Assembly (NCBI GenBank): GCA_963784785.1
Contig: CAWASW010000005.1
Span: 9,247 to 73,246, forward strand
Length of the DNA stretch: 64,000 bases
Direction: 5' to 3'
DNA from: Candidatus Woesebacteria bacterium
Lineage (GTDB): Bacteria > Patescibacteriota > Microgenomatia > UBA8517
In this document: in pieces, positions 2,763 through 64,000 of the stretch
Layout: every line of letters starts with the position of its first letter
How positions within the stretch are numbered: position 1 is the first letter of the stretch
Position numbers and translations under genes: made by a program
The notes under the pieces: generated by a model
Told to the model about the DNA's origin: nothing
The model's input: the letters and a program-made list of their open reading frames with translations, nothing else
The model's database searches: none

Positions 2763-3969
2763 AGGTGATCGCTGTACCTTTTTTGTCTGCTCTTCCAGTT
2801 CTTCCAATTCTATGGACATAGGTTTCGTAATTTTCTGGTGCTTCATAATTAATGACATGGCTAACGTTTGGAATATCAAGTCCACGTGAGGCAACATCAG
2901 TTGCAATCAAGATATTAATATGACTTGATTTAAATTTATCTAGAGTTCTTAGCCTTTGGCTTTGCCTTTTGTTTCCATGAATTGCGTCTGCTTTGAATCC
3001 TCTTGCAATAAGCTCATCAGCAAGATGTTGAACACCATGTTTAGTTCTTGCAAAGATCAATACTTTATCAAACTCCTGTTGCTTCAATAAATCGTGTAAT
3101 TGTTCAATCTTTTTGTGTGGACTATCAACCTTGATAACTTCTTGCTTGACGTTTGCAGCTGTCTCTCTTGTTTTAACAGAAATTGTGACAGGATTATTAA
3201 CAAAGGCATTTAAAACAGATCTTACTTTTCCATCAATAGTGGCTGAGAAAAATAGAGATTGTCTTTTTTGTGGTAATAACGAAATCATGTATTGGATATC
3301 CTTTAAAAATCCAATATCAACCATATGGTCAGCTTCATCTAAGACGACTGAAGCACAATCATCAAGTCTTAAGGTTCTTGAATCTACGTGGTCCAAAAGT
3401 CTTCCTGGTGTACCAATTATAAAATTTGGATTTCTACGAAGTTCCTGTTTTTGTCTATTTATGTTTTCACCGCCAATACATAAAGCAGAATATATATTTA
3501 ATCCTTTTGAAAACAAATAAAATTCATCCCTAATTTGACTTGCAAGTTCTCTAGTGGGTGCAACTATAAGTACTTTTTCTGTTCTATTTTTTAACACTTT
3601 GTCTAGAAGTGGGATCAAGAACGCCGCTGTTTTACCTGTACCTGTATTTGCAATACCAATTAAATCTCTACCTTTTAAAATTTCTGGAATTGATTGATCT
3701 TGAATAGGGCTTGGGGATCCATAATGTCGATCCAATACATTGATCTGTAATTTTGCATCAATTTTAAAATCAGAAAAAGTGTGAGTTGGGATGTATGTTT
3801 CTGGAGCAATTGCTACATCTTCATTTTTTTGTGCATTAATTACACCAGTAGGGTCAAATGACTTAGCAATTCTGCCCCTTCCACCGGCACCAAAACGTCT
3901 ACCTATTGCACCATAATTGGTACGAGGTTTAAAACCGCCACGAGATCCTCCACTAAAATTTTTATACAT
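2755..3969 (-). CDS. DEAD-box ATP-dependent RNA helicase with RGG-rich tail
   Basis: Motifs GTGKTAAF, PTRELA, DEAD, SAT, HRIGRTGR; C-terminal RGG repeats. Confidence 0.9.
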   Translation of the reverse strand: MYKNFSGGSRGGFKPRTNYGAIGRRFGAGGRGRIAKSFDPTGVINAQKNEDVAIAPETYIPTHTFSDFKIDAKLQINVLDRHYGSPSPIQDQSIPEILKGRDLIGIANTGTGKTAAFLIPLLDKVLKNRTEKVLIVAPTRELASQIRDEFYLFSKGLNIYSALCIGGENINRQKQELRRNPNFIIGTPGRLLDHVDSRTLRLDDCASVVLDEADHMVDIGFLKDIQYMISLLPQKRQSLFFSATIDGKVRSVLNAFVNNPVTISVKTRETAANVKQEVIKVDSPHKKIEQLHDLLKQQEFDKVLIFARTKHGVQHLADELIARGFKADAIHGNKRQSQRLRTLDKFKSSHINILIATDVASRGLDIPNVSHVINYEAPENYETYVHRIGRTGRADKKGTAITFI

Positions 3970-4100
3970 AATTTTTTAAACTATAATAACTTGGGGAAAA
4001 ACCGAAGAAGTAATTTGTTTAGAACAGTTACAATCAGTCTTTCTTTAAATCAATATACGAATAATATCATCAATATTCTGAAATGTCAATCCCATAGTAC

Positions 4101-4358
4101 TTATTTGGTCTTTTTAACCTTCTTTGGAGCTTCTTTTTGATCCTGATTAAATAGGATATAAATAAGAGGTAAAATTCCCATAGAATTTACCAATAATAAA
4201 GCTACAAACCAGATAGATTGACCTTTCCTTGCAGATTTCCATAGAGCAAAACCTTTAAGTATTAAATTAAGAATGACTAATGGTAATAAAAATCTAAGCC
4301 ATCCACTCATCATTTGGGAGTTTCCGTAATAATTATTAAATCCACCTAAGTTCATCAT
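4101..4358 (-). CDS. small membrane protein, hypothetical
   Basis: 85 aa with two hydrophobic helices. Confidence 0.3.
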   Translation of the reverse strand: MMNLGGFNNYYGNSQMMSGWLRFLLPLVILNLILKGFALWKSARKGQSIWFVALLLVNSMGILPLIYILFNQDQKEAPKKVKKTK

Positions 4359-4363
4359 AAAAG

Positions 4364-4609
4364 TTATGTATTAATTAAACTCTCTTTGTTTTTTCTTGTC
4401 AATGACTTAATTTCTATCTCTCTTTTTAATGCTAGACTTTTGGTGTCGAAACTTTCGGTGTGAACTAATTCAAAGCTATCAAAAGATCTCATATATTTAG
4501 CAGACCTTTTGGTTTTTATCCTATGTTCATTTAGTCTTTTTTCTAAATTATTGGAAATTCCAGTATAAAGAGTGTTTCTCGATGTTCTTAAAATGTAAAC
4601 TGTATACAT
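4364..4609 (-). CDS. GIY-YIG nuclease family protein
   Basis: N-terminal VYILRT...LYTGIS...R...EH pattern typical of GIY-YIG. Confidence 0.65.
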   Translation of the reverse strand: MYTVYILRTSRNTLYTGISNNLEKRLNEHRIKTKRSAKYMRSFDSFELVHTESFDTKSLALKREIEIKSLTRKNKESLINT

Positions 4610-5535
4610 TATTTAAGTATTTGTAGAGCTTCCTTTATTGATTTTGTTTGCATAAGTGCTGCACGTAACTTGCTTGCTCCCTCAAAGTTATTGACATACA
4701 TTTTATAGAATTTTTTGATCTCGTCAGAATATTCGTTGTTACAAAGCTTTAAGTGCTTAATCAAAACTTTTTTTGATTCTTCAAATGTATGTATTTTGGC
4801 TTCTTTTTCAAAGACCCAAGGATTTAAAAAAATACCTCGCCCAATCATTACTCCGTCAACCTTGTACTGCTCATGTTTTTCTAATACCTCTTGGTAACTT
4901 TTGACATTGCCATTACCAATAATGATTGTACTGGGTGAAATTTTATTTTTTATTTCTACTGCTTTTGCAATTTCGTCCCAATGGACTTCACTTAATGATA
5001 ATTCCTTGGCAGTTCTTCCGTGAATAGATATTGCGCTAATATTTTGTTCGAGTAGAAAAGTGACCCAATCATCAGTAATTATTTTGTTTCTGCCTAATCT
5101 AGTCTTCACACTAATGGGTAACTTATTTGCTCCTTTTTTAGTTGATTTTATAATTTCTGAGACTAATAAACGATTGTCTATAAGTGCCGACCCCGCACCA
5201 ATTTTAATAACTGCCCGATCTGGACATCCTATGTTAATATCAATTCCGTCAAAACCTAAATCAGAGGCAATTTTTGCTGATTTCATAAAGTTTTCTGGAT
5301 TAGTACCCCAAATCTGTGCGACTATTGGTCTTTGCGATTTACTAAATTTAAACCTTGGAATGGTTTTTTCAAAACCACTTGAGTTTAGGGCATCTACATT
5401 TGTAAATTCAGTAAATAAGACATCGGGTTTTGGCAAATAATTTGCGACAACTTCACGAAATGCAAAATCAGTTACTCCCTCCATTGGAGCAAGGACTGTA
5501 AACGGTTTGGGTAACTTCTGCCAAAAATTACTCAT
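4609..5535 (-). CDS. dus: tRNA-dihydrouridine synthase
   Basis: LAPMEGVTDFAFR, IWG, DINIGCP motifs of the Dus TIM-barrel family. Confidence 0.85.
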   Translation of the reverse strand: MSNFWQKLPKPFTVLAPMEGVTDFAFREVVANYLPKPDVLFTEFTNVDALNSSGFEKTIPRFKFSKSQRPIVAQIWGTNPENFMKSAKIASDLGFDGIDINIGCPDRAVIKIGAGSALIDNRLLVSEIIKSTKKGANKLPISVKTRLGRNKIITDDWVTFLLEQNISAISIHGRTAKELSLSEVHWDEIAKAVEIKNKISPSTIIIGNGNVKSYQEVLEKHEQYKVDGVMIGRGIFLNPWVFEKEAKIHTFEESKKVLIKHLKLCNNEYSDEIKKFYKMYVNNFEGASKLRAALMQTKSIKEALQILK

Positions 5536-8279: not shown

Positions 8280-8344
8280 AAAATGGTCAAGCAAAGCAAG
8301 GCATTACAAATGCATCATGATTACTACGTTCGTTTGTACAATCT
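8280..8344. repeat. 65-bp direct target duplication, left copy (IS1634-like copy 1)
   Basis: Identical to 9991..10055; contains the start codon and first 21 codons of the 108-aa gene. Confidence 0.85.
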
Positions 8345-9990
8345 CCTGACTTCGCCAATTAAGTGCCCTGAATAAAAGATAGAAGTTTGGTATTTTTAAG
8401 AAGTTGAAGTTGCTCTGTTGTTGGTTCTGTAAATTTTGATATTTCTTCATTTGAGATTTTGTCTTTGATAGTAATTTCTTTTAAGCTTGATAGAATTTGT
8501 AGTATCTTTTTTGTGCTTTTGTTGTTTTTAATTTCTGCATATCTTGTAATTGCAAGACTGGTAAAAACAATTAACATGTGGGTTAATATTTTTTCTTTGG
8601 CTGTATGAAATATTGGTCTAGCTTGGAGGTCTGATTTTGTGATTCTAAATGCCTTTTCAACTTGCCAGAGTTCTTGATATTTGGTAATTATTTCTGTGTT
8701 TGTTAATTCTAGTGCATTTGTAACATAACCTTTTAAGCCTTCAAGCTGTTCTGCTTTTTTAAGTTTAGCTTCATTTATTTTCCATTCTTTTTTAATTCCC
8801 TTTTCTTTTTTTAGAAATTTGTAGTTTTTAGTTAAGTTGCTTGGATTATTTAGTGCATAATTTGCTCTTTTTAATTGTTTTTCTCTGTCTGATTTGTCTT
8901 TTGATGCTCTTTTGACTGAGTAGTTGATAATTAAAAATTTAGTTTTTGTAAGTTCAAATCTTTCTGTAGAGCCATCTATTTTAGGTACACTAATTACTTT
9001 TTTAAAAATAGTTTTGTCTAAATTACCAAGTCTTGCTCCAACTATAAACTTTAAGTTTTCTTTTTCCAATTCATCTGTATTTTTCTCACTTAACATACCA
9101 GCATCTGCAACAAGAATAATGTCTTTCAAGGAATGCTTTTTGATGAGGTCTTTCATTACAGGAAGCATTGTGTGGCCTTCAAAAGTATTTCCTTCAAAAG
9201 CCTGCATATGAACAGGGAAACCTTGTTTTGTGACTGTTAAGGAAACAACTATTTGAGGTTGATTTGATTTTTTGTCTTTTGAAAAGCCATTTTTTCTAAA
9301 ATCATCTTCTGTAAAAGATTCATAATATAAAGTTGTGACATCAAAAAATAAAACTGAAATTACAGATGAAATATTTGTTTTGGCAAAATTAAATAACAAA
9401 TCCTCAACTATCTCTTTGTAGCCACCATCAAAGGCTTTTTTCATGCCTCTGTAGATTTCTGTAAGTGAGTATTTGTGATTTAATTTCTCTTCAAGATAAT
9501 TTCTAGTTTCAAGTTTTGAAGTTGGATTTAAAATTCTTGCAATAACAAGATCCTTAAAACAATTGTCTTTTAAGTCATTTAAACCTAAAAAATGATAGTA
9601 AAAATCAAAAAAATTGTAAGAGACAGTATCCATTACTTTGCCAAAAGTTACCTTTGAAAGTAGCTCTTTAAGTTCAGATTGATTAAATCTGTTGTCAAAA
9701 AGTGAAATTCTTCCTTCTTTGATACGACAATCATCAATGTATTTTAAGCCTAATTTTGTAAGTTCAATTAGCTCCAACTCATTTCTTGCAGTTCCAATGT
9801 GCTTCACTATTTTTCTTCTTCCTGAAACTTTTTGGGCAACTTGAACTGATGTATTAGATTTGTTTTTGACCTTTCTTAAGTACATTCAAACCTAATTTTA
9901 GCAAATAAAACAGTAAGTGCCCTAAAGTACATAAAAATACAAACAATTAGCCTCAAGAAGTTACATAAAAACTAGGTTGGCGAAGTCAGG
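8345..9990 (-). mobile_element. IS1634-family-like insertion sequence (IS4 superfamily), copy 1, 1646 bp
   Basis: 14-bp terminal inverted repeats CCTGACTTCGCCAA / TTGGCGAAGTCAGG; 508-aa transposase; long flanking direct repeat. Confidence 0.8.
8359..9885 (-). CDS. IS1634-family-like DDE transposase
   Basis: 508 aa; N-terminus MYLRKVKNKSNTSVQVAQKV...IVKHIGTA resembles IS1634-family transposase N-termini; three near-identical copies in the window (one K/E difference). Confidence 0.8.
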   Translation of the reverse strand: MYLRKVKNKSNTSVQVAQKVSGRRKIVKHIGTARNELELIELTKLGLKYIDDCRIKEGRISLFDNRFNQSELKELLSKVTFGKVMDTVSYNFFDFYYHFLGLNDLKDNCFKDLVIARILNPTSKLETRNYLEEKLNHKYSLTEIYRGMKKAFDGGYKEIVEDLLFNFAKTNISSVISVLFFDVTTLYYESFTEDDFRKNGFSKDKKSNQPQIVVSLTVTKQGFPVHMQAFEGNTFEGHTMLPVMKDLIKKHSLKDIILVADAGMLSEKNTDELEKENLKFIVGARLGNLDKTIFKKVISVPKIDGSTERFELTKTKFLIINYSVKRASKDKSDREKQLKRANYALNNPSNLTKNYKFLKKEKGIKKEWKINEAKLKKAEQLEGLKGYVTNALELTNTEIITKYQELWQVEKAFRITKSDLQARPIFHTAKEKILTHMLIVFTSLAITRYAEIKNNKSTKKILQILSSLKEITIKDKISNEEISKFTEPTTEQLQLLKNTKLLSFIQGT

Positions 9991-10055
9991 AAAATGGTCA
10001 AGCAAAGCAAGGCATTACAAATGCATCATGATTACTACGTTCGTTTGTACAATCT
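9991..10055. repeat. 65-bp direct target duplication, right copy (IS copy 1)
   Basis: Identical to 8280..8344. Confidence 0.85.
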
Positions 10056-10320
10056 GATGGAAGGTAATCTCTTACCTGCAGACAGAGAAAACTACAACGC
10101 GGCTATGATATGCGAACGTCAAGGACTTGTCAAACCGTTGCCACAGCCCTGGTATGTAAAAGCTGGGCTTTTGATCGGCATGACAATTGTCTTTTTCGGT
10201 TTGATGCTACTCACATCGCGCTTCGGCGGCTTTTTGGGAGGATTCCAAACACTTGCCTTCTCATTTGAAGGATTGCTTTGGCTTTTGACCTGCGCCGCCA
10301 TCGTGTTCAATCGCAATTAA
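9994..10320 (+). CDS. small two-TM membrane protein; GC-richer than the neighbourhood, probably acquired
   Basis: 108 aa; first 21 codons lie in the IS target duplication, so the ORF is intact but separated from its original upstream region. Confidence 0.5.
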   Translation: MVKQSKALQMHHDYYVRLYNLMEGNLLPADRENYNAAMICERQGLVKPLPQPWYVKAGLLIGMTIVFFGLMLLTSRFGGFLGGFQTLAFSFEGLLWLLTCAAIVFNRN

Positions 10321-10477: not shown

Positions 10478-11221
10478 ATGGTGATGAACAAAAAGAGAAT
10501 ATATGTAATTGGACCATCAGGAAGTGGAAAAACGTATCTTGCTAAAGTAATCTCAAAGCATTTTAACATTCCACATACAAACCTGGATTATGTTTTTTTT
10601 GATCACAAAGTATCTAAAAGTCGTGATGAAGTATCAGATGAAGAGTGGATGAGAAGATTAAATAAGTTAATTGAAGAAGATGATTGGGTTATTGAAGATA
10701 CCGTTGCATAAACGGTCACTTGTTTAGCCTTAAATGATTTGTTGTTTTTCGTTAAAATAATAACACTTTCGTCCGATTACTCGGACAATGCTGAAATTGG
10801 TTGTAGAAGCGTTTACTTAGTGAAACTACCTTTTTAGGCCGAAAGTATAGTAAAATCAGTGTGTTTTAGGAGACCGAAATGTAACGGTCTCGTTATTGAA
10901 GGAGTCAATCCAATTAATGAAGTTTTTGAAATTGCAGATAGAATTATTTTTTTAAGACTAAATATAGTTGAAACGTTAATAAGCCAGTGGGGACGATATC
11001 TAACGGATGAGGTGCAACGCAGAGAACATGGTTTTATCAATAACTTAAAATTATCCAAATATCTTATTAGACAGCACGTAGAAGAAGAAAATTTATCAAA
11101 ATCGGAAGACCCTAAATATTTTAGAATAAGAAAAGTTGATAGAATTTTAAAAAAGTATTCAAACAAAACTGTGATTTTAAACAGCAGAAACGAAGTTAAT
11201 AAATTTATTGAAACTTTATAA
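10478..11221 (+). pseudogene. P-loop NTPase/kinase-like gene (adenylate-kinase-like fold) split by a 195-bp MITE
   Basis: N-part ends ...DWVIED-TVA-stop inside the MITE; C-part resumes ...EGVNPINEVFEIADRIIFL after the MITE; Walker A GPSGSGKT; 9-bp TSD GTTATTGAA on both sides. Confidence 0.65.
10697..10891 (+). mobile_element. 195-bp MITE, copy 1
   Basis: Termini GATACCGTTGCATAAACGGTCAC ... GGAGACCGAAATGTAACGGTCTC (imperfect TIRs, each a hairpin); 9-bp TSD GTTATTGAA at 10688-10696 and 10892-10900. Confidence 0.75.
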
Positions 11222-13410: not shown

Positions 13411-13605
13411 GAGACCGTTACATTTCGGTCTCCTAAAACACACTGATTTTACTATACTTTCGGCCTAAAAAGGTAGTTTCACTAAGTAAACGCTTCTACA
13501 ACCAATTTCAGCATTGTCCGAGTAATCGGACGAAAGTGTTATTATTTTAACGAAAAACAACAAATCATTTAAGGCTAAACAAGTGACCGTTTATGCAACG
13601 GTATC
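13411..13605 (-). mobile_element. 195-bp MITE, copy 2 (inverted orientation)
   Basis: Same 195-bp element; truncates the recombinase gene; lies 6 nt from the 3' end of tRNA-Gln; no clear TSD. Confidence 0.7.
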
Positions 13606-13611
13606 CGTCGT

Positions 13612-13685
13612 TGGCTACGGGTCAGGGACTCGGACCCCGATAAGCAGATCCAGAATCTGCTGTCCTGCCATTAGACGAACCCGTA
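13612..13685 (-). tRNA. tRNA-Gln (anticodon CUG), CCA encoded
   Basis: Manual cloverleaf: acceptor TACGGGT/ACCCGTA with U1-A72 and G73, D-arm GTCT-AATGGCA-GGAC, anticodon arm GCAGA-TTCTGGA-TCTGC, T-arm CGGGG-TCCGAGT-CCCTG (unusual C at position 55). Confidence 0.6.
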
Positions 13686-14283: not shown

Positions 14284-14949
14284 ATGATACGAAAGACTTC
14301 AAAAATTTTATCTAACTTAGAATATTTTGTAAAAGGTAATAACCCAAAACTTCTAATACATTGTGGTACTTATGGAGATGAATACGACGTTGTGAAACAC
14401 GTAGAGAATGCTGTCATAAAGTATGAGGAACAATTGCCAGATTTTGTTTTTGTGCCGATTGTTTCTCCGTCTGCTGTCAAATTGAGAACTCGAATTAACG
14501 ATAACGGAAAAGATTTGAATAGAATATTTTTCTCAGATTCAACTGATCCTGAGGTTTTGGCAAACATAGAAATTATCGGTGAAAACAAATATGACTTGTT
14601 TGTCAGTTTCCATGAGGATTTTGAATTTCCTGATTATTACATCTATGATGAGGGTTTTACTAATCTAAAACAGAATATGATTCTAAATCATAATTCACAA
14701 ATTTCAAAATTAGGATTTACTCTATTCAACGGCATAGATGACCCAATTCTGAATAACGTCTTTTTAAATGGGTACAAAAAAATAGTAATTAACAAAGATA
14801 CAAGAAATAATGGAATGATTACAAGTTGGATGTTATCTGAAGGAAAGGTACTTGATACATTAAATCCTGAAATACCTATGAATTTAGATTCAAATTCAAA
14901 GAAGAAAATTATAGATACATTTTTTGAAAATGTTTTGTGCTATTCTTAA
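14284..14949 (+). CDS. hypothetical protein (weak resemblance to M14/desuccinylase-like hydrolases)
   Basis: 221-aa ORF; HCGTYGDEYD loosely HGG-HGNE-like. Confidence 0.35.
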   Translation: MIRKTSKILSNLEYFVKGNNPKLLIHCGTYGDEYDVVKHVENAVIKYEEQLPDFVFVPIVSPSAVKLRTRINDNGKDLNRIFFSDSTDPEVLANIEIIGENKYDLFVSFHEDFEFPDYYIYDEGFTNLKQNMILNHNSQISKLGFTLFNGIDDPILNNVFLNGYKKIVINKDTRNNGMITSWMLSEGKVLDTLNPEIPMNLDSNSKKKIIDTFFENVLCYS

Positions 14950-15469
14950 ATCTTCTGCACATTAATCCCCAGCCTTTAGGCTGGTGGAGCAAGTATAGTT
15001 TGTGGCATACTTGAGGGAAATGTTAAAGTACTGGCATGGTGCACACACAAAGCACAGAATTATGATTCATTTGGTATTTTTACCAAAATACAGAAAAAGG
15101 ATATTACGTGGCAAAGTAGCTACAAGACTTAAAGACTTATTCTTCAAAGCATGTGAGGTTAACAACTGGTGGATTGAAGAAATTACAATATTGCATGATC
15201 ATGTACATATGCTTATACAAATCCAACCAAACTTGTCCATCTCAAAAGTTGTTAACCAACTGAAAGGTGGTTCATCAAGAATCTTAAGGAAAGAATTTCC
15301 AGAGTTAGAAGAATTTCTTTGGGGTGACTCATTCTGGTCTGATGGCTACTTTGCAGAATCAGTGGGTGCAACAAGTTTCATCCAGGTTAAAAAATACATT
15401 AAAAATCAAGTGGAAAGTATGCCACAGAAGGGGTAAAACCATGGCATTTATGCCATGTGTTTTTTATTG
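14949..15469 (+). mobile_element. IS200/IS605-family element (tnpA only), copy 1, 521 bp
   Basis: Subterminal hairpins CCAGCC-TTTA-GGCTGG (left) and CCATGGCAT-TT-ATGCCATGG (right); identical to copies at 26863 and 37072. Confidence 0.8.
15002..15436 (+). CDS. tnpA: IS200/IS605 family Y1 (HUH) transposase TnpA
   Basis: 144 aa; HuH motif HVHMLIQ and catalytic Tyr region SDGYFAESVG. Confidence 0.85.
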   Translation: MAYLREMLKYWHGAHTKHRIMIHLVFLPKYRKRILRGKVATRLKDLFFKACEVNNWWIEEITILHDHVHMLIQIQPNLSISKVVNQLKGGSSRILRKEFPELEEFLWGDSFWSDGYFAESVGATSFIQVKKYIKNQVESMPQKG

Positions 15470-19945: not shown

Positions 19946-21133
19946 GAGACCGTTCTATTTCGGTCACCTAAAATGAATTGTTTATCTCCTATTTTCAATC
20001 AAAAAAGGTAGTTTCACTCAGTGAACTTGTAGTTAAAATGAGGTATGATTCACGCATGAAAAAAGAGAAAGAGTTTATAGTTGTCCAAAATGTGGGAGTA
20101 TTCACACAATCAGAAAAGGAGTTAGGAGAGGAAAAATTAAGTATTTTTGCAAAATATGTGGAGCTTGGTTTCAGTTAAACAGAAGGCCAAAATTAAACAG
20201 TTCTTCTTTGGTTACAGACCATTTTTTAGGTTTATCATTTAGATCCCTAGGTTCAAAATCAGATGTTTTAGGAAGCACAGCTTACAGAAGATATCAATCT
20301 CAGATTGAAAACAAGTTGCAATGTATTGATATCACAAGACTTTATTGTTCTAAATTTTGTGGAATACTTTTAGTTGATGGAAAATATATCAAAGTTAAAG
20401 GATACGAAAGAAAAATACCAGTTATCTATGGAATTGATTATCTCACACACGACATTGTACATTTTGTGCTTGGTCCATCTGAAAATTACAGATTATTACT
20501 TAAGTTTTTCTCTTCACTAAAGTTATCAAATTATCCACTTCAAGCAATTGTTTCAGATGACAATCAGAACACGCCACAGGCGTGTTTAAAGGTTTATCCT
20601 ACTGCAATCTGGCAACTTTGCCAGAATCACTACAAACAAAATATTAGAGGTACTTTAGGACTTTACAAAGACCTATCACACCTTAAATTTATGAATGAAA
20701 TTGAAGTTCTTTTTTCAAGAAAAATGGAAACAGGAGAATTCAAAAAACTAGCTTCAAAAATATATGACAGATACAAGGGAAACAAACTAGAAACACAAAT
20801 TATGCTTGATATTGCAAAAAGATCTCCTGATCTTTTTGCATATACAAAGGTTCATCATGTTCCTAGAACAAACAACTTAATTGAAAGCTTCAACTCACAT
20901 CTTGAAGGGAGATTAAAAACAATTAAAGGATTTGAAAACTTCAAAACGGCAAAACTCTGGTTAAACCAATATTTTATTAAAAGAAGAACAAAAAAGTTTA
21001 CAGACTGCACAAAACATTTCAAGAATTTAAATGGAAAATGCTCGTTAGAAGTTACCTTAAAAGACCCCTATATTTTAAAAGATGTTTTGAAGCTAATTAA
21101 TTAAAATCAGGTGACCGTTTATGCAACGGTATC
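19946..21133 (+). mobile_element. IS1595-family-like insertion sequence (1188 bp) with TIRs related to the 195-bp MITE
   Basis: IRL GAGACCGTTCTATTTCGGTCACC, IRR GGTGACCGTTTATGCAACGGTATC; encodes a Zn-ribbon plus DDE transposase. Confidence 0.65.
20056..21104 (+). pseudogene. IS1595-family transposase, frameshifted near the 5' end
   Basis: ATG at 20056 followed by an A6 run; Zn-ribbon CPKCGSIHT...CKICGAWF lies in a different frame, continuous with the 298-aa DDE domain ORF (DGKY, SDDN, TNNLIESFNSHLEGRLK motifs). Confidence 0.6.
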
Positions 21134-21143
21134 CAGCGAAGTG

Positions 21144-21338
21144 GAGACCGTTACATTTCGGTCTCCTAAAACACACTGATTTTACTATACTTTCGGCCTA
21201 AAAAGGTAGTTTCACTAAGTAAACGCTTCTACAACCAATTTCAGCATTGTCCGAGTAATCGGACGAAAGTGTTATTATTTTAACGAAAAACAACAAATCA
21301 TTTAAGGCTAAACAAGTGACCGTTTATGCAACGGTATC
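21144..21338 (-). mobile_element. 195-bp MITE, copy 3
   Basis: Complete copy with 9-bp TSD AGCGAAGTG (21135-21143 and 21339-21347); abuts the IS1595-like right end and the tRNA-Glu 3' end. Confidence 0.75.
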
Positions 21339-21346
21339 AGCGAAGT

Positions 21347-21417
21347 GACGCTTATGAGAGTCGGACTCATATTTCTTGGATGAGAACCAAGTGTCCTAGC
21401 CGTTAGACGAAAGCGCC
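21347..21417 (-). tRNA. tRNA-Glu (anticodon CUC)
   Basis: Manual cloverleaf: acceptor GGCGCTT/AAGCGTC (one G-U), D-arm GTCT-AACGGCTA-GGAC, anticodon arm CTTGG-TTCTCAT-CCAAG, T-arm ATGAG-TCCGACT-CTCAT (C55); MITE TSD overlaps the discriminator. Confidence 0.5.
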
Positions 21418-26690: not shown

Positions 26691-26862
26691 CCTGATGAAT
26701 AAAAAAATATTGTTTGAAAATCTTGTTATAGTGAGAAAATTGAATTTGCTGTCGTCGATAGAAAAAGCAAAAGACGCGAGAGACAATGCTCCGGATGCAA
26801 CTGAAAGTCATTCTGATACTAGGAGAAATCAGGCAGAAAAACTTGTGGTTGCGTTAGAAATT

Positions 26863-27384
26863 GAATCTTCTGCACATTAATCCCCAGCCTTTAGGCTGGT
26901 GGAGCAAGTATAGTTTGTGGCATACTTGAGGGAAATGTTAAAGTACTGGCATGGTGCACACACAAAGCACAGAATTATGATTCATTTGGTATTTTTACCA
27001 AAATACAGAAAAAGGATATTACGTGGCAAAGTAGCTACAAGACTTAAAGACTTATTCTTCAAAGCATGTGAGGTTAACAACTGGTGGATTGAAGAAATTA
27101 CAATATTGCATGATCATGTACATATGCTTATACAAATCCAACCAAACTTGTCCATCTCAAAAGTTGTTAACCAACTGAAAGGTGGTTCATCAAGAATCTT
27201 AAGGAAAGAATTTCCAGAGTTAGAAGAATTTCTTTGGGGTGACTCATTCTGGTCTGATGGCTACTTTGCAGAATCAGTGGGTGCAACAAGTTTCATCCAG
27301 GTTAAAAAATACATTAAAAATCAAGTGGAAAGTATGCCACAGAAGGGGTAAAACCATGGCATTTATGCCATGTGTTTTTTATTT
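26863..27384 (+). mobile_element. IS200/IS605-family element, copy 2 (identical to copy 1)
   Basis: Same 521-bp sequence and terminal hairpins. Confidence 0.8.
26917..27351 (+). CDS. tnpA: IS200/IS605 family transposase TnpA
   Basis: Identical 144-aa protein. Confidence 0.85.
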   Translation: MAYLREMLKYWHGAHTKHRIMIHLVFLPKYRKRILRGKVATRLKDLFFKACEVNNWWIEEITILHDHVHMLIQIQPNLSISKVVNQLKGGSSRILRKEFPELEEFLWGDSFWSDGYFAESVGATSFIQVKKYIKNQVESMPQKG

Positions 27385-36345: not shown

Positions 36346-37071
36346 ATTCACTAAAGAATTAATAATAGTTTTTTTAATATGTGTTTTGGCTTTTTGTTTA
36401 AGAATTTATAAAATAAACACAGATCTTTTGTATCATAGAGATCAAGGTTTGGTCGCCATGGATATATACAAGATTTGGCATGATAAAAAAGTGTCTTTGC
36501 TTGGGGCACCTACCGACGTAGATGGCCTATTTCACTCCCCTGTGTATTATTGGATTTTAACCCCATTTTACGCACTTGGTCGCGGGGATATCGTTTATCC
36601 TGCTATTTTTCAGATCCTGATTGAAATATTGTCTCTACCTTTTTTGTATCTTGCGGTCAAAAAACTATTTAGCAAAGAAATAGCCTTTACTACATTAATA
36701 TTTTATGCTGTGTCATATGGTTTAATATCATACAGCCGTTGGTTTATTACTGTTCCGTTTATTTTGCCTCTTACTAACATACTTCTGTACACTTTAGTTT
36801 TTGAAAAGGGAATTTTTATTAATTCATTAATCATTGGAATGATATCCCAAACTAATGCTGCTGTTGGTATTTTTTATTTGCCATTTTTGCTGTTTACTTT
36901 TAGGAAAAATTTAAATTTTAAAAATATTTTACTTTTGTTGATTGGATTTTTAATCCCTGCTATACCACTAGTGCTATTTCAATTTAGACATGATTTTATA
37001 ACCATCAAGACGATTCTTAACTATTCAGGCAGCTCTTCTGCTGGTTTAGGTTTTTCAGTAGATGTTATTTT

Positions 37072-37593
37072 AAATCTTCTGCACATTAATCCCCAGCCTT
37101 TAGGCTGGTGGAGCAAGTATAGTTTGTGGCATACTTGAGGGAAATGTTAAAGTACTGGCATGGTGCACACACAAAGCACAGAATTATGATTCATTTGGTA
37201 TTTTTACCAAAATACAGAAAAAGGATATTACGTGGCAAAGTAGCTACAAGACTTAAAGACTTATTCTTCAAAGCATGTGAGGTTAACAACTGGTGGATTG
37301 AAGAAATTACAATATTGCATGATCATGTACATATGCTTATACAAATCCAACCAAACTTGTCCATCTCAAAAGTTGTTAACCAACTGAAAGGTGGTTCATC
37401 AAGAATCTTAAGGAAAGAATTTCCAGAGTTAGAAGAATTTCTTTGGGGTGACTCATTCTGGTCTGATGGCTACTTTGCAGAATCAGTGGGTGCAACAAGT
37501 TTCATCCAGGTTAAAAAATACATTAAAAATCAAGTGGAAAGTATGCCACAGAAGGGGTAAAACCATGGCATTTATGCCATGTGTTTTTTATTA
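37072..37593 (+). mobile_element. IS200/IS605-family element, copy 3 (identical)
   Basis: Same 521-bp sequence. Confidence 0.8.
37126..37560 (+). CDS. tnpA: IS200/IS605 family transposase TnpA
   Basis: Identical 144-aa protein. Confidence 0.85.
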   Translation: MAYLREMLKYWHGAHTKHRIMIHLVFLPKYRKRILRGKVATRLKDLFFKACEVNNWWIEEITILHDHVHMLIQIQPNLSISKVVNQLKGGSSRILRKEFPELEEFLWGDSFWSDGYFAESVGATSFIQVKKYIKNQVESMPQKG

Positions 37594-39185: not shown

Positions 39186-39397
39186 ATACACGTTCAAAAG
39201 AAGCAGACAAATTAGCAAATTTGTATCGTGCGGCTTTTTATATCGCAAAAGGAGCCGAAAAAATTGGGTTAGATTTTATTAAGAAAACTGATGAGGAATT
39301 TCCAGAAATGGATTTCTCAACCGATATTAAAAGGATGTATTGGGCAGAAAAAGTTTTTGATAGGTACGTTTTGTTAAAAATTAACATAAGTAAATGA
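39176..39397 (+). CDS. hypothetical small protein
   Basis: 73-aa ORF overlapping its neighbours by a few nt. Confidence 0.3.
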   Translation: MAIDTRSKEADKLANLYRAAFYIAKGAEKIGLDFIKKTDEEFPEMDFSTDIKRMYWAEKVFDRYVLLKINISK

Positions 39398-39723
39398 AAA
39401 TAAAAGTCATTGTAAATGACATGATGCAAAAGGGCTATGAATATCACTTAACTTCTTCGATCGGTAAAGATTTTGACCCTAATTTCACTCCTGAATTAAC
39501 ACCGAAAGAAATGTTAGAACTTGGTGTTTTTGGTGGTAAATACATGACAGATTGCAAAGATGAATTTCCAAAAGATTGGTATAAAAATGCAAAATTATGT
39601 CATGAATTTCATAATCCAAAATTAAATTTTTTCAAAATTAGTGCAAGTGAGTTTCTTTCTGTTTGGAGACAAAAAGGATGGATATTTGATGAAGATCCGA
39701 GAGGATGGGATACCGTTGCATAA
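39394..39723 (+). pseudogene. hypothetical gene interrupted by a MITE and then an IS1634-like element; C-terminal part resumes at 41795-41882
   Basis: Removing the MITE gives an in-frame read-through ...DEDPRGW-FQWYCRYYMGRRNE..., which is the ORF found after the IS (41649-41882). Confidence 0.6.
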
Positions 39724-39903
39724 ACGGTCACTTGTTTAGCCTTAAATGATTTGTTGTTTTTCGTTAAAATAATAACACTTTCGTCCGATTACTCGGACAA
39801 TGCTGAAATTGGTTGTAGAAGCGTTTACTTAGTGAAACTACCTTTTTAGGCCGAAAGTATAGTAAAATCAGTGTGTTTTAGGAGACCGAAATGTAACGGT
39901 CTC
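39709..39903 (+). mobile_element. 195-bp MITE, copy 4
   Basis: 9-bp TSD AGAGGATGG at 39700-39708 and 39904-39912. Confidence 0.75.
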
Positions 39904-40016
39904 AGAGGATGGTTCCAATGGTATTGTAGATATTATATGGGTAGGAGAAATGAAAAAATAGATCAAATTCAGATCGAAAGGTGGAAGTCAATGAAAAGAC
40001 ATATTGCACAACTAGT
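39885..40016. repeat. 132-bp direct target duplication, left copy (IS copy 2); includes the last 19 bp of the MITE
   Basis: Identical to 41663..41794. Confidence 0.85.
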
Positions 40017-41662
40017 CCTGACTTCGCCAACCTAGTTTTTATGTAACTTCTTGAGGCTAATTGTTTGTATTTTTATGTACTTTAGGGCACTTACTGTTTT
40101 ATTTGCTAAAATTAGGTTTGAATGTACTTAAGAAAGGTCAAAAACAAATCTAATACATCAGTTCAAGTTGCCCAAAAAGTTTCAGGAAGAAGAAAAATAG
40201 TGAAGCACATTGGAACTGCAAGAAATGAGTTGGAGCTAATTGAACTTACAAAATTAGGCTTAAAATACATTGATGATTGTCGTATCAAAGAAGGAAGAAT
40301 TTCACTTTTTGACAACAGATTTAATCAATCTGAACTTAAAGAGCTACTTTCAAAGGTAACTTTTGGCAAAGTAATGGATACTGTCTCTTACAATTTTTTT
40401 GATTTTTACTATCATTTTTTAGGTTTAAATGACTTAAAAGACAATTGTTTTAAGGATCTTGTTATTGCAAGAATTTTAAATCCAACTTCAAAACTTGAAA
40501 CTAGAAATTATCTTGAAGAGAAATTAAATCACAAATACTCACTTACAGAAATCTACAGAGGCATGAAAAAAGCCTTTGATGGTGGCTACAAAGAGATAGT
40601 TGAGGATTTGTTATTTAATTTTGCCAAAACAAATATTTCATCTGTAATTTCAGTTTTATTTTTTGATGTCACAACTTTATATTATGAATCTTTTACAGAA
40701 GATGATTTTAGAAAAAATGGCTTTTCAAAAGACAAAAAATCAAATCAACCTCAAATAGTTGTTTCCTTAACAGTCACAAAACAAGGTTTCCCTGTTCATA
40801 TGCAGGCTTTTGAAGGAAATACTTTTGAAGGCCACACAATGCTTCCTGTAATGAAAGACCTCATCAAAAAGCATTCCTTGAAAGACATTATTCTTGTTGC
40901 AGATGCTGGTATGTTAAGTGAGAAAAATACAGATGAATTGGAAAAAGAAAACTTAAAGTTTATAGTTGGAGCAAGACTTGGTAATTTAGACAAAACTATT
41001 TTTGAAAAAGTAATTAGTGTACCTAAAATAGATGGCTCTACAGAAAGATTTGAACTTACAAAAACTAAATTTTTAATTATCAACTACTCAGTCAAAAGAG
41101 CATCAAAAGACAAATCAGACAGAGAAAAACAATTAAAAAGAGCAAATTATGCACTAAATAATCCAAGCAACTTAACTAAAAACTACAAATTTCTAAAAAA
41201 AGAAAAGGGAATTAAAAAAGAATGGAAAATAAATGAAGCTAAACTTAAAAAAGCAGAACAGCTTGAAGGCTTAAAAGGTTATGTTACAAATGCACTAGAA
41301 TTAACAAACACAGAAATAATTACCAAATATCAAGAACTCTGGCAAGTTGAAAAGGCATTTAGAATCACAAAATCAGACCTCCAAGCTAGACCAATATTTC
41401 ATACAGCCAAAGAAAAAATATTAACCCACATGTTAATTGTTTTTACCAGTCTTGCAATTACAAGATATGCAGAAATTAAAAACAACAAAAGCACAAAAAA
41501 GATACTACAAATTCTATCAAGCTTAAAAGAAATTACTATCAAAGACAAAATCTCAAATGAAGAAATATCAAAATTTACAGAACCAACAACAGAGCAACTT
41601 CAACTTCTTAAAAATACCAAACTTCTATCTTTTATTCAGGGCACTTAATTGGCGAAGTCAGG
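40017..41662 (+). mobile_element. IS1634-family-like insertion sequence, copy 2
   Basis: Same 1646-bp element and TIRs as copy 1. Confidence 0.8.
40122..41648 (+). CDS. IS1634-family-like DDE transposase
   Basis: 508 aa, identical to copy 3. Confidence 0.8.
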   Translation: MYLRKVKNKSNTSVQVAQKVSGRRKIVKHIGTARNELELIELTKLGLKYIDDCRIKEGRISLFDNRFNQSELKELLSKVTFGKVMDTVSYNFFDFYYHFLGLNDLKDNCFKDLVIARILNPTSKLETRNYLEEKLNHKYSLTEIYRGMKKAFDGGYKEIVEDLLFNFAKTNISSVISVLFFDVTTLYYESFTEDDFRKNGFSKDKKSNQPQIVVSLTVTKQGFPVHMQAFEGNTFEGHTMLPVMKDLIKKHSLKDIILVADAGMLSEKNTDELEKENLKFIVGARLGNLDKTIFEKVISVPKIDGSTERFELTKTKFLIINYSVKRASKDKSDREKQLKRANYALNNPSNLTKNYKFLKKEKGIKKEWKINEAKLKKAEQLEGLKGYVTNALELTNTEIITKYQELWQVEKAFRITKSDLQARPIFHTAKEKILTHMLIVFTSLAITRYAEIKNNKSTKKILQILSSLKEITIKDKISNEEISKFTEPTTEQLQLLKNTKLLSFIQGT

Positions 41663-41794
41663 ACCGAAATGTAACGGTCTCAGAGGATGGTTCCAATGGT
41701 ATTGTAGATATTATATGGGTAGGAGAAATGAAAAAATAGATCAAATTCAGATCGAAAGGTGGAAGTCAATGAAAAGACATATTGCACAACTAGT
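41663..41794. repeat. 132-bp direct target duplication, right copy
   Basis: Identical to 39885..40016. Confidence 0.85.
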
Positions 41795-41899
41795 CAAAAA
41801 TTGTTTACCCGAAGACTGGAATTGCAGAAGAAGGCAAAGACAGGCACTGTTGCATTGGGCATATGACACAAGAAAGATTTAATGTGATATTATATATAT

Positions 41900-44739: not shown

Positions 44740-45777
44740 ATGAACGAAGAATTAAATCAAAAATTAGCAAAACTAAAAGAAGTACTAGATATTCCAAAGA
44801 AAGAAGAAGAGCTAAAACAACTTGAGGTTCTTTCTCTTGATCCTCACCTTTGGGATGATCAAAATAATGCAAAATCAGTTTTGCAAAATATATCAAGCCT
44901 GACAGAAGAACTTGCTGAAATAAAAGATGTTTCTGATACTTTGGAAATTTTAAATGAAGTTCAAGATGAGGAAGAACTCAAAAAGTTATCCAGACAAATT
45001 GCAAAATTAGAACTTAAGTCATATCTATCTGGCCCATATGACAATAAAAATACGATAGTGACAATTCATGCAGGACAAGGCGGAACTGAAGCCATGGATT
45101 GGTCAGCAATGCTTTTTAGAATGTATATCAGGTATTGTGAAAGAAAAGGTTTTTCAACTGAAATATTAGAAAACACTCAAGGTGAAGAGGCGGGAATTAA
45201 AAGTGTTACCTTCCAAATTAAAGGTCGTTATGCCTATGGTTATATGAAAGGCGAAGCGGGAACTCATAGACTAGTTAGGCAGTCTCCATTTAATGCTAAT
45301 GATTTAAGGCAGACTTCGTTTGCATTGGTTGAAGTATTGCCTGATTTAGAGGCTTCAGATCTTCCTGATATTCAAATTAAGGATGAAGAACTTGATTGGC
45401 AATTTACAAGGGCAGGTGGTCATGGTGGACAAAATGTTAATAAAGTTTCAACTGCAGTAAGACTTACTCATTTACCTACGGGGATTGTAATTACAGCTAG
45501 AACCGAGAGGTTTCAAGAGCAGAACAGAAAGATTGCATTAGGTCTTTTGCGTGCGAAACTTTGGTTAAGACAACAGGAAATGGAAAAGAATCATTTAAAA
45601 GATATCAAAGGTGATTACAAACCAGCAAGCTGGGGTAACCAGATACGTTCTTACGTTCTTCATCCTTATAAGATGGTCAAGGACTTAAGGACTGAGGTGG
45701 AATCAGGTAATCCTGATGCAGTCTTGGACGGCGAAATGGACGAATTCATCGAGGCAGAGTTGAAACTTAAATTGTAA
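44740..45777 (+). CDS. prfB: peptide chain release factor 2 (single uninterrupted ORF)
   Basis: SPF tripeptide (RF2-specific) and GGQ motif; no in-frame UGA. Confidence 0.9.
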   Translation: MNEELNQKLAKLKEVLDIPKKEEELKQLEVLSLDPHLWDDQNNAKSVLQNISSLTEELAEIKDVSDTLEILNEVQDEEELKKLSRQIAKLELKSYLSGPYDNKNTIVTIHAGQGGTEAMDWSAMLFRMYIRYCERKGFSTEILENTQGEEAGIKSVTFQIKGRYAYGYMKGEAGTHRLVRQSPFNANDLRQTSFALVEVLPDLEASDLPDIQIKDEELDWQFTRAGGHGGQNVNKVSTAVRLTHLPTGIVITARTERFQEQNRKIALGLLRAKLWLRQQEMEKNHLKDIKGDYKPASWGNQIRSYVLHPYKMVKDLRTEVESGNPDAVLDGEMDEFIEAELKLKL

Positions 45778-59980: not shown

Positions 59981-60165
59981 ACCCATAAGCAGAGCTTGTC
60001 GTAACCGATAGTATTGACATTTATCCTCAGACATGATATTCTGTTTTAAGTTAAAAAGTCTGTTTGCACTTTAAAATTTCCCTCAAATTTGCACCCTTTT
60101 AATTAAGAGGTGCCCAAACAAATTGTGTTTTTCAAAATTCATATTAGTTATAAGGAGATTAAATC

Positions 60166-60897
60166 ATGGATACCAATACTATTTTAACACCACATGGTAC
60201 TATTCTCGTATCAGTACCTGAAGGAAAGCAACGTTTTCAGTTCACCCTTAACGGTCAGCTGATCACCGAGCCTGTTCACAGCCTCGTGGCTACACTCAAA
60301 ACCGCACGCGCAGATTTCCAGTATGTGTACGGCATGGGACCGGACGGTTGGGATGACATCACTCGTCGTGAGACTGGTGGTGGTGGTGTCGGTGATGTCG
60401 TATTCTCGATCATCAAGCGTGATCTTTGGATTGGCTTGGTCGAGCAAACGCGCGCCTATCAATCGATTGACCCGATTAAGAACATCCTTCGCGGTTACCT
60501 CGTTTCGGGCGAAACTCGTGAACAACGCGCAGTATCAACGGCTAAAACAGACGGCGGTATGGATCAGTTTTTGATCTTCCCTCTGCCTGGCGCGCCGCAA
60601 AACACCAATAACGCGTTTAACGAAACTTGGCAAAACGGCGGTGATGGCATAACCGACTGCGGCATATTCGTTCCGAGCAAGCATCTTGTTGCAAAAGATG
60701 ATACATATGTATTTAAGCCCAATGTAATCAATCCTCCTAGTGATCAAACACGCAAGATCCTTGGATGTCATTTCATCCACTGGGCAGACTCTGCTCGGCT
60801 TGGTGATATGATGACCACATCCGGCGGTTATCGTCTCATGGCTTTCTTGCATGAAATTGGTGTTATGAAAGCCTCTTTCAGCAGGTTCGATTCGTAA
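60166..60897 (+). CDS. hypothetical protein encoded in a strongly GC-rich (foreign-looking) segment
   Basis: 243-aa ORF with own RBS AAGGAG; GC visibly far above the flanks (many GCG/CGC/GGC codons). Confidence 0.5.
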   Translation: MDTNTILTPHGTILVSVPEGKQRFQFTLNGQLITEPVHSLVATLKTARADFQYVYGMGPDGWDDITRRETGGGGVGDVVFSIIKRDLWIGLVEQTRAYQSIDPIKNILRGYLVSGETREQRAVSTAKTDGGMDQFLIFPLPGAPQNTNNAFNETWQNGGDGITDCGIFVPSKHLVAKDDTYVFKPNVINPPSDQTRKILGCHFIHWADSARLGDMMTTSGGYRLMAFLHEIGVMKASFSRFDS

Positions 60898-60924
60898 TAA
60901 AATTTGTTTGGGCGCTCTCTAATG

Positions 60925-60987
60925 TTCCTCACGGTCTCGTAAAAGTTTGATGGCAATTGCTGCTGTTGAATTTGAGATCGTGAGGGA
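60925..60987 (+). terminator. long-range hairpin downstream of the GC-rich gene
   Basis: CCTCACGGTCTC ... GAGATCGTGAGG. Confidence 0.3.
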
Positions 60988-60996
60988 TTTTTAGAA

Positions 60997-61162
60997 AGTT
61001 TTGCCTGTGTGGTATTTGTAAATAAAAGTTTGAATTAAAAAATCAAATAATAAAAAACAATACCGCACGGCAAGAACAAATTCTCCAAAAAGGACTATTT
61101 TGATACTTGACTTTATGTTTAGCCCTGCTAATATACAAATATGTATATAAAAAGGTCTGTTT
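60997..61162. repeat. 166-bp direct target duplication, left copy (IS copy 3)
   Basis: Identical to 62809..62974; contains the promoter region and first 7 codons of the downstream AAA ATPase gene. Confidence 0.85.
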
Positions 61163-62808: not shown

Positions 62809-62974
62809 AGTTTTGCCTGTGTGGTATTTGTAAATAAAAGTTTGAATTAAAAAATCAAATAATAAAAAACAATACCGCACGGCAAGAACAAATTCTCCAA
62901 AAAGGACTATTTTGATACTTGACTTTATGTTTAGCCCTGCTAATATACAAATATGTATATAAAAAGGTCTGTTT
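62809..62974. repeat. 166-bp direct target duplication, right copy
   Basis: Identical to 60997..61162. Confidence 0.85.
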
Positions 62975-64000
62975 TACCCAGTTTAATCGGGCACCTCGAT
63001 AATGATGAAATCTCTCTTTTGGTGGGTCCAAGGCAATCTGGCAAAACCACTTTGATGCTTGAGCTGATAGAGAAACTTAAAAGTGAGGGTAAAAAATATA
63101 TCTATCTTAATTTGGATATTGAAAAAGATAATATTTATTTTGTATCACAATCTAAACTACTTGAAAAAATTAAATCAATATTAGGAAACGAAAAAGGATA
63201 TGTTTTTATCGATGAAATTCAAAAGAAAGAAAATGCCGGTATATTCCTCAAAGGAATATATGACATGAAACTCCCTTATAAGTTTGTTGTTACTGGGTCA
63301 GGTTCTATAGAATTAAAGGAAAAAATATATGAATCTTTAGCGGGAAGAAAAAGAGTTTTTGAGATCTCTCCATTGTCTTTTGAGGAATTTGTTAATTATA
63401 AAACTGAATATTTATATGAAGGAAAATTAGATGAGTTTTTTAGAATTAATGAGTCTACTGGTATTGAATTGTTAAATGAATATATGATGTTTGGTGGCTA
63501 CCCTAAAGTTGTGATAAATGATACTTTTGAAGAGAAAAGACTAGTTTTGGAAGATATTTTTAAGAGTTTTATAGAAAAAGACATACAAGTACTTTTGAAA
63601 GTTGAAAAAAGTGATGTTTTAATAAATTTGCTAAAAATTTTAGGTAGTCAAAACGGAAGATTAACTAATTTTAACGAATTATCAAACACTTTAAATATTT
63701 CAGTACAAACAGTCAAAAAATACATATGGTATTTAGAAGAAACTTATATTCTTAATAAGTCTTTACCATTTTTTAAGAATGTCAGAAAAGAAATTACAAA
63801 ATCTCCTATTTATTATTTTGTTGATTTAGGTCTTAGGAACTATCTTTTGGATGTTCATATGTTCGATTCAATTATTGATAAAGGTTTTCTATTTCAAAAT
63901 TTTGTTTTTAATGAAGTCAAAAAAATTTATAGTATTTCTGTGTCTCCAATTAAGTTTTGGAGAACAAAACAAGGTGCTGAGGTGGACATCGTAATTGATG
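62953..64000 (+). CDS. AAA-family ATPase with DUF4143-type C-terminal region (3' end beyond window)
   Basis: Frame-1 translation from ATG 62953 gives MYIKRSVLPSLIGHLDNDEISLLVGPRQSGKTTLMLE... with Walker A and later FIDEIQ; ORF runs off the window end and is absent from the supplied ORF table. Confidence 0.7.
   Translation, partial: MYIKRSVLPSLIGHLDNDEISLLVGPRQSGKTTLMLELIEKLKSEGKKYIYLNLDIEKDNIYFVSQSKLLEKIKSILGNEKGYVFIDEIQKKENAGIFLKGIYDMKLPYKFVVTGSGSIELKEKIYESLAGRKRVFEISPLSFEEFVNYKTEYLYEGKLDEFFRINESTGIELLNEYMMFGGYPKVVINDTFEEKRLVLEDIFKSFIEKDIQVLLKVEKSDVLINLLKILGSQNGRLTNFNELSNTLNISVQTVKKYIWYLEETYILNKSLPFFKNVRKEITKSPIYYFVDLGLRNYLLDVHMFDSIIDKGFLFQNFVFNEVKKIYSISVSPIKFWRTKQGAEVDIVID

Follow-up and report, generated by a model that had tools for sequence, protein, structure and literature searches.

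Insertion sequences (ISs) of the IS1634 family are 1500–2000 bp long, contain one open reading frame (ORF) and end in inverted repeats with the consensus C-----YT (De Palmenaer 2008, PMC2266710). Upon insertion, they typically duplicate 5–6 bp of AT-rich target DNA (PMC2266710; PMC6352166), as in the case of ISGka5, with 6 bp (PMC8024623). IS1634 and IS1549 are documented exceptions, being flanked by long repeats that vary from 8 to 514 bp, and no mechanistic model exists for this variable duplication size (De Palmenaer 2008, PMC2266710). In the literature that we searched, the long-repeat behavior is recorded for these two elements only; in the sequence data of the lineage, it is widespread. 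Here, we describe a 1646-bp element that occurs three times in a 64-kb stretch of DNA (hereafter, the window). Very probably, this element is a recently active IS of the IS1634 family, IS1549/IS1634-like with CCYGA(C/G)TT ends, and the long direct repeats flanking its copies are target-site duplications made at insertion.

Direct comparison showed that the three copies differ from one another by at most 1 nt (Table 1). Copy 2 is the reverse complement of copy 3 with no differences, and copy 1 departs from both at a single base (position 659, T vs. C), with the effect that its transposase has K instead of E at one residue. In all copies, the element ends form a perfect 14-bp inverted repeat, CCTGACTTCGCCAA. 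Each copy is bracketed by an exact direct repeat that is flush with both of its ends, and the three near-identical copies carry three different repeat lengths. The copy coordinates, the repeat lengths and the inverted-repeat sequence listed in an initial annotation of the window proved correct in every instance. Each repeated segment occurs twice in the window, both times beside the IS. Because exact repeats this long abut both ends of three insertions, a chance origin is impossible.

Table 1. Positions in the 64-kb window of the three element copies, their transposase genes, the flanking direct repeats and the genes at the insertion sites.
Feature	Coordinates	Strand	Remarks
IS copy 1	8345-9990	-	1646 bp; terminal inverted repeats 8345-8358 and 9977-9990
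IS copy 2	40017-41662	+	1646 bp; opposite orientation; terminal inverted repeats 40017-40030 and 41649-41662
IS copy 3	61163-62808	-	1646 bp
Transposase gene, copy 1	8359-9885	-	508 aa; K where copies 2 and 3 have E
Transposase gene, copy 2	40122-41648	+	
Transposase gene, copy 3	61177-62703	-	
65-bp direct repeat, copy 1	left 8280-8344; right 9991-10055		exact, flush with element ends
132-bp direct repeat, copy 2	left 39885-40016; right 41663-41794		exact, flush with element ends
166-bp direct repeat, copy 3	left 60997-61162; right 62809-62974		exact, flush with element ends
Target gene, copy 1	9994-10320	+	108-aa predicted membrane protein, no Pfam match; complete to the right of the IS
Target gene, copy 2	39394-39708, 39913-40016 and 41795-41882	+	three pieces; joined, a 507-nt ORF (168 aa)
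Target gene, copy 3	62953-64000	+	AAA_14/DUF4143 ATPase, continues past the window end; intact on the right side

An independent short-read assembly bears on the same repeats. Run ERR12037365 is the only Logan sample with this organism, and its assembly is fragmented at every repeat. One of its contigs (L002) begins at window position 41766, 29 nt before the right 132-bp repeat ends, the point at which a de Bruijn graph (k of about 31) would branch if the segment had two different continuations; a second contig (L001) consists of the element and one base on either side. Since the short-read assembly independently breaks inside the repeat, the duplication is not an artefact of one assembly. Furthermore, a fourth copy of the element, 100% identical, lies at the end of contig CAVZPH010000002.1 (L003), with flanks that differ from those of the window copies. 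An Rfam scan of the window returned two tRNAs and nothing within the element, and a consensus promoter and terminator scan of copy 2 gave nothing above the level of shuffled sequence.

The element is a DDE insertion sequence of the IS4/Tn5 superfamily and belongs to the IS1634 family. Its sole long ORF encodes a protein of 508 aa that matched the NCBIfam model NF033559 (IS1634 family transposase) with 320.4 bits, the curated cutoff being 100, over residues 23–498 and profile positions 2–478 of 483. The rival NCBIfam models for IS4, IS1182, IS1380 and IS701 each scored less than 26 bits, under their own cutoffs, and the next-best family was IS4 (NF033592; 25.8 bits vs. a cutoff of 115). The family assignment made in the initial annotation is thereby upheld, there being no better match outside the IS1634 family. 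The protein also matched Pfam DDE_Tnp_1 (8.9e-15). In an alignment with 19 homologues, D182, D261 and E410 were invariant, as were Y403, L406 and K417, giving the signature Y403-x2-L406-x3-E410-x6-K417, in which L406 occupies the R position of YREK; the D261–E410 spacer measures 149 aa. An arginine-less YREK variant and a long D-to-E spacer are the features used by De Palmenaer et al. 2008 to separate IS1634 from IS4 (PMC2266710).

In size (1646 bp), in its single ORF and in its ends, CCTGACTT (C at position 1, T-T at positions 7–8), the element conforms to the IS1634 family, whereas its repeats of 65, 132 and 166 bp depart from the 5–6 bp AT-rich duplication. This departure is the documented IS1634/IS1549 exception and no ground for excluding the element from the family, and the variation in length between copies that marks the long-repeat lineage is present. 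The IS4 family proper does not fit: the arginine is missing (L406), and the repeats measure 65–166 bp rather than about 8–13 bp. A PDB sequence search with the family profile matched no chain. The AlphaFold model (pLDDT 81) had the Tn5 transposase 4dm0_A as its top PDB fold match (E 2.2e-8, probability 1.0, TM-score about 0.4).

How does the element compare with systems already described? IS1634 of Mycoplasma mycoides subsp. mycoides SC and its near-twin ISMbov3 share with it the NF033559 family, one ORF of roughly 500 aa, a length of 1.5–2.0 kb, short inverted repeats starting with C and a multi-copy presence in a small AT-rich genome. Long variable direct repeats are shared with IS1634, going by the title of Vilei 1999. 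The host of IS1634 and ISMbov3 belongs to the Mycoplasmatota, whereas that of the window is of the candidate phyla radiation (CPR)/Microgenomates type, and the likeness is drawn from published descriptions. The initial annotation had presented long variable duplications as a trait of the IS1634 group, in agreement with the published range of 8–514 bp for IS1634 and IS1549 (PMC2266710). Elements on Mycobacterium plasmids have CCTGAGTT termini and, like the window element, flush duplications (45 and 608 bp; L089, L092). Their transposases are 31–33% identical to that of the window and are annotated only as 'IS1634 family transposase', and a likeness to IS1549 (M. smegmatis) is assumed here; these elements are longer than ours (1765–1779 bp), and the few high-GC cases lack the preference for A at the first duplicated base that is described below.

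ISGka5 (Geobacillus) and ISTth3 (Thermus) have the same transposase family, the arginine-less YREK and the long D-to-E spacer (PMC2266710), but duplications of this type measure 5–6 bp and are AT-rich, compared with 65–166 bp for the window element. The transposase of Tn5/IS50 (IS4 family), the best fold match of the model, shares the DDE triad and the Y..E......K signature. On the other hand, it has no detectable sequence similarity to the window transposase, the TM-score is about 0.4, L406 stands for the R of YREK, and the duplication that Tn5 produces, working as a rigid dimeric synaptic complex, is fixed at 9 bp. Long variable target duplications of tens to hundreds of base pairs are also known from restriction-modification units (Furuta et al. 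2010, PMC2853133), which have neither transposase nor terminal inverted repeats, unlike the window element with its DDE transposase and defined ends. The window element adds a member from a CPR host to the known long-duplication type of IS1634 and IS1549 and represents neither a new mechanism nor a new family.

Was the duplicated DNA originally single? At copy 2, the 132-bp repeat is made up of the last 19 nt of a 195-nt mobile element, which resembles a miniature inverted-repeat transposable element (MITE) and is described below, and of 113 nt of the gene for a 168-aa protein, a gene that had already been broken by the MITE. We deleted the 195-nt MITE with one copy of its 9-bp duplication (39709–39912) and the IS with one copy of the 132-bp repeat (40017–41794), which left an uninterrupted 507-nt ORF. 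The encoded 168-aa protein has thousands of full-length homologues of 167–168 aa, with identities of up to 85%. The reconstructed ORF aligned gap-free over 507 nt with its orthologues in two related genomes, L086 (GCA_049301455.1) and L088:7001-7507 (JGI 3300042876), at 78% and 82% nucleotide identity, respectively. The window, L086 and L088 have a gene order in common (SecA .. FKBP - 168-aa gene - LytR_C - TGT - LytR_C - x - RF2), and the loci in L086 and L088 are without IS ends and without the MITE. A motif search for the duplicated segment found a single copy in L086 (also in L087) and missed L088, where the motif sequence differs; the single copy in L088 rests on the gap-free alignment. 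Since the syntenic orthologues carry the segment once and without gaps, the duplicated segment of copy 2 was originally single. The search for empty sites suggested in the initial annotation thus supports, for copy 2, a duplication at insertion. L083, which is the closest of the RF2 relatives on long contigs (92% amino acid identity), was rejected as an empty site, the 168-aa gene being missing at that position.

The duplications at the other two copies cover gene starts. That of copy 1 begins 3 nt before the ATG of the 108-aa ORF and reaches its codon 21. Its left repeat holds the ATG and the first 62 nt of the ORF, which is cut off there by the IS, and the right-hand ORF is complete because the duplication includes the start codon; the native upstream sequence retained by this intact ORF amounts to 3 nt only. 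At copy 3, the right 166-bp repeat contains, as read from the sequence, a promoter-like TTGACT (62919–62924), a 16-nt spacer and TAATAT (62941–62946). The ATG of the ATPase gene (62953) follows about 7 nt after TAATAT, the first 22 nt of the gene lie inside the right repeat, and the gene keeps a 144-bp upstream region on this side. Judged by these predicted features, the reading frame next to the element stays complete when the duplication covers the gene start (copy 1) or the promoter and start (copy 3). If the right-hand copies are still expressed, a working gene need not have been inactivated by any of the three insertions.

With ...CAGG at the end of the element and, usually, A-purine as the first bases of the target, all six junctions read CAGG|AR and present an outward-pointing, Shine-Dalgarno-like AGGA(R). 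At the copy 1 junction (window 9985–9996), such a putative AGGA(R) precedes the start codon of the intact 108-aa ORF by 3 nt; the native AAGGAG of this ORF has been lost. To the left of copy 3 is a 243-aa ORF (60166–60897) without a Pfam match; the bin 60001–62000 has a GC content of 0.367, compared with 0.28–0.41 across the 2-kb bins of the window, and its composition is unexceptional.

We surveyed relatives of the element in one genome per species. Of 484 loci encoding transposase relatives, the best 80 were examined, and almost all of these have the termini CC[T/C]GACTT...AAGTC[A/G]GG. Exact repeats flush with CC/GG were found at 21 of the relative loci (18–507 bp), and flush repeats with one mismatch at 4 further loci (56–248 bp). 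In addition, L046 (DAINPM010000008.1, a Bacteroidales metagenome-assembled genome (MAG), IS at 3894–5497) has a flush 1761-bp repeat with two mismatches. If this repeat is a target duplication, it is far above the 514-bp maximum in the literature; it starts with A and ends with T, as the shorter ones do. Together with the three window copies, these 26 relatives form a motif set of 29 flush duplications of 18–1761 bp. Among the CPR hosts in the survey were Gottesmanbacteria (82 bp) and Berkelbacteria (53 bp), and there were many Bacteroidota, including cultured Sphingobacterium and Pedobacter. A single element in the MAG STL-BAC18 is flanked by repeats of four lengths, 88, 260, 430 and 107 bp (L058, L060-L062). 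A duplication of 5–6 bp was seen in 0 of about 49 surveyed relatives.

Similarly, IS1634-family elements on complete plasmids (31–35% identity), with the ends CCTGAGTT or CCTGTCTT, are flanked by flush repeats of 45 bp in Mycobacterium sp. SMC-8, 608 bp in M. riyadhense, 33 bp in Persicobacter and 680 bp in Aliarcobacter, the last of which partly duplicates a Crp/Fnr gene. With these four, the scored total is 33, or 38 including five variant loci: L048 (65 bp with a terminal mismatch), L027 (about 98 bp, diverged), L072 (at least 382 bp, limited by the contig), and L070 and L018, which have intervening DNA. The ends CCYGA(C/G)TT are thus common to relatives and plasmid elements from CPR bacteria, Bacteroidota, Actinomycetota and Campylobacterota. 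The initial annotation had called the three insertions of the window an unusually clean data set, which overstates the case, as relatives of the element that combine the same ends with long duplications are frequent in public genomes.

Three loci of the survey have other arrangements. At L018 (JADJGB01, a Sphingobacteriales MAG), the 148-bp repeat is flush at the right IS end, but on the left side 1397 bp separate it from the IS end. L019, also of JADJGB01, shares the left-hand sequence of L018, and this arrangement suggests a larger mobile unit or a nested element. At L091 (a Rhodococcus plasmid), the left terminal repeat is present twice, 170 bp apart, with no flanking duplication.

The 29 flush insertions of the motif set (CPR/Bacteroidota) provide 58 half-sites, each of which was read 5' to 3' on the strand joined to the element 3' end. 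The first duplicated base (+1) is A in 53 of the 58 (background A 0.31, p = 5e-22), and this preference is symmetric, with 27/29 at the transposase-proximal end and 26/29 at the distal end; all six half-sites of the window start with A. The +2 base is a purine in 49/58 and T once, the three positions that follow are A-rich, and T occupies position -1, immediately outside the duplication, in only 3/58. The preferred half-site is V|AR followed by A-rich bases. In the five half-sites with a +1 base other than A, this base still lies within the repeat; therefore, the element boundary is at CC...GG, and the T|CC...GG|A context is a target preference. A 1648-bp IS, with T...A inside the element and repeats shorter by 2 bp, was ruled out, the adjacent base being duplicated even if it is not T/A (L006, L026, L049, L058 and L060). 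No repeat of the set is shorter than 18 bp, the median length is about 85 bp, and a long tail goes past 500 bp. The lengths showed no helical phasing at periods of 9.5–11.5 bp (best Rayleigh R 0.23–0.28 vs. a 95% null of 0.45).

Could the two ends of the element be joined to the target without being rigidly coupled to each other? The 3'-OH of each element end would attack the target on opposite strands, 5' of an A within an A-purine half-site. The two joints would be 5'-staggered by a loosely constrained distance of at least about 18 bp, with a median of about 85 bp and a tail beyond 500 bp, and repair synthesis would then fill the two single-stranded gaps, whereby the whole interval would be duplicated. 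In place of the rigid Tn5 dimer with its two active sites, there would be two loosely tethered end complexes, an arrangement suggested by the floor near two helical turns, by lengths that follow no helical phase and by their long tail. All of this, from the chemistry of strand transfer through the loose coupling of the ends to the repair of the gaps, is what we infer from established DDE chemistry, as in Tn5 and strand transfer of the retroviral-integrase type.

Other origins of the repeats have to be weighed against duplication at insertion. That the repeats pre-existed, as a tandem or dispersed pair between which the element inserted itself, is hardly credible. Nothing specific speaks for it, although copy 2 does adjoin the repeated MITE, and it is contradicted by the confinement of each segment to the two places around the IS, by repeats that abut the IS flush on either side at 3/3 window copies, as they do at more than 30 independent insertions elsewhere, and by the gap-free orthologues that hold the copy 2 target segment once. 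Furthermore, copies 1 and 3 would need partial duplications of gene starts that end exactly at the IS. Assemblers do err at repeats, and a long-read MAG (L003) is the closest public record, so a long-read assembler might have duplicated the flanks when bridging a multi-copy repeat. However, the independent break in the short-read assembly (Logan, ERR12037365), 29 nt before the right 132-bp repeat ends, and the same architecture in isolate genomes and complete plasmids (L041, L063, L089, L090, L092 and L093) and in short-read MAGs make such an artefact extremely improbable. A later origin of the long repeats, through recombination or replication slippage around an IS that had first made an ordinary short duplication, is very unlikely. 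It is known, for example from Mycoplasma mycoides (PMC3053259), that IS copies promote both duplications and rearrangements, and about 30% of the relatives are without any repeat. On the other hand, no surveyed insertion has a 2–12 bp repeat nested at its junctions, and the long repeats meet CC/GG exactly. At the edges that face away from the IS, these repeats have a sequence preference in common, which secondary rearrangements would not create.

It is also conceivable, if rather unlikely, that the element enters DNA that is already single-stranded, as a gap or a melted region (replication fork, promoter bubble), the size of which would set the repeat length. In favor of such targets, the duplicated segments are more AT-rich than their flanks (0.33 vs. 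0.39, p 2.5e-4), only 4 of 26 duplications lie wholly within one long ORF compared with 15.3 expected under random placement, and the copy 3 duplication holds a promoter-like site. But purifying selection against gene disruption, or the A-rich half-site preference, would give the same pattern, the ORF calls behind the gene-boundary count are crude, and duplications of 430–1761 bp are too long for a transcription bubble.

Duplication at insertion by staggered transfer of the two ends is itself subject to several points that weigh against it. About 15 of the roughly 49 relatives with adequate flanks show no repeat. These copies could result from later rearrangement or from insertions with the opposite stagger that deleted target DNA, and such deletions are not predicted by the simple model. 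The preference for A at +1 is missing in the four high-GC or plasmid examples checked. Exact-protein look-ups and metagenome scans gave no strain-level empty site for copies 1 and 3: the look-ups found nothing for the copy 1 transposase variant, the 108-aa ORF or the 243-aa ORF to the left of copy 3, and no relative emerged from two metagenome scans, for which the 108-aa and 243-aa proteins were used. Finally, the model of uncoupled ends is our own, put forward in this analysis.

Beyond the window, it is possible, and we suggest it tentatively, that long variable duplication is the rule for the very large CCYGA(C/G)TT lineage of CPR, Bacteroidota, Actinomycetota and Campylobacterota. Two loosely coupled single-end transfers would take place 5' of A-purine, at least about 18 bp apart and unphased, and the insertions that are retained would preferentially straddle gene boundaries, with one intact gene copy surviving. 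The lineage-wide pattern and the half-site preference, as they appear in the genome sequences compared, come from the survey of relatives made here. If true, this reading would provide a testable model for a mechanism that the literature calls unexplained, and straddling gene boundaries would let the IS persist in gene-dense, streamlined genomes. The window and more than 30 other insertions supply constraints (the boundary, the lengths, the phasing and the half-site) for a mechanistic model or an in vitro system, and the value of the window element is as part of this larger clean data set bearing on an unexplained transposition geometry. Long duplications can leave the reading frame of the target complete, as at copy 1, or the gene with its upstream region, as at copy 3. 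For annotation, duplicated gene starts beside such elements should not be counted as separate genes or pseudogenes.

The initial annotation had placed the element in a host of the Patescibacteria type and had thought the finding probably undescribed there. The RF2 gene at window 44740–45777 bears out the first point, its best named matches being from the Microgenomates group, the Patescibacteria group and Woesebacteria MAGs. The closest homologues of the transposase (50–90% identity) are overwhelmingly on Patescibacteria-type metagenome contigs of about 1.6 kb. Contigs of the size of a single IS are the usual sign of a multi-copy IS collapsed in assembly. As for novelty, no paper mentioning both 'IS1634' and 'Patescibacteria' was found in the literature searched, and IS1634-family transposases have already been annotated by NCBI in Patescibacteria MAGs. 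The record with the fourth IS copy (CAVZPH010000002.1:93740-99277, L003), which also carries an IS200-like repeat, bears the title 'uncultured Actinomycetota bacterium MFD02832.bin.3.209', in conflict with the RF2 and transposase matches to Microgenomates/Patescibacteria; probably, the record is mislabelled or the bin is mixed.

Two further mobile elements occur in the window. The 195-nt element that precedes copy 2 is non-coding and present in four 100% identical copies, at 10697–10891 (+), 13411–13605 (-), 21144–21338 (-) and 39709–39903 (+), and as remnants, a diverged partial copy at 19946–20026 and a fragment at 21104–21133. Its ends are imperfectly inverted over about 23 nt (GATACCGTTGCATAAACGGTC / GAGACCGTTACATTTCGGTC), each can form a hairpin, and 3/4 copies have 9-bp target duplications (GTTATTGAA, AGAGGATGG and CACTTCGCT). 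The element looks like a recently active MITE. It breaks two reading frames, and two of its copies adjoin genes for tRNA-Gln (13612–13685) and tRNA-Glu (21345–21417). The MITE ends bear no relation to those of the IS1634-type element, and no autonomous partner was found. The other element, of about 525 bp, is present three times (about 14946–15468, 26861–27383 and 37063–37592) with 99.6–100% identity and encodes a 144-aa IS200-type Y1 transposase (Pfam Y1_Tnp, 9e-41). With the IS1634-type element, the MITE and the IS200-type element, at least three recently active mobile elements lie within 64 kb of a small CPR-type genome.

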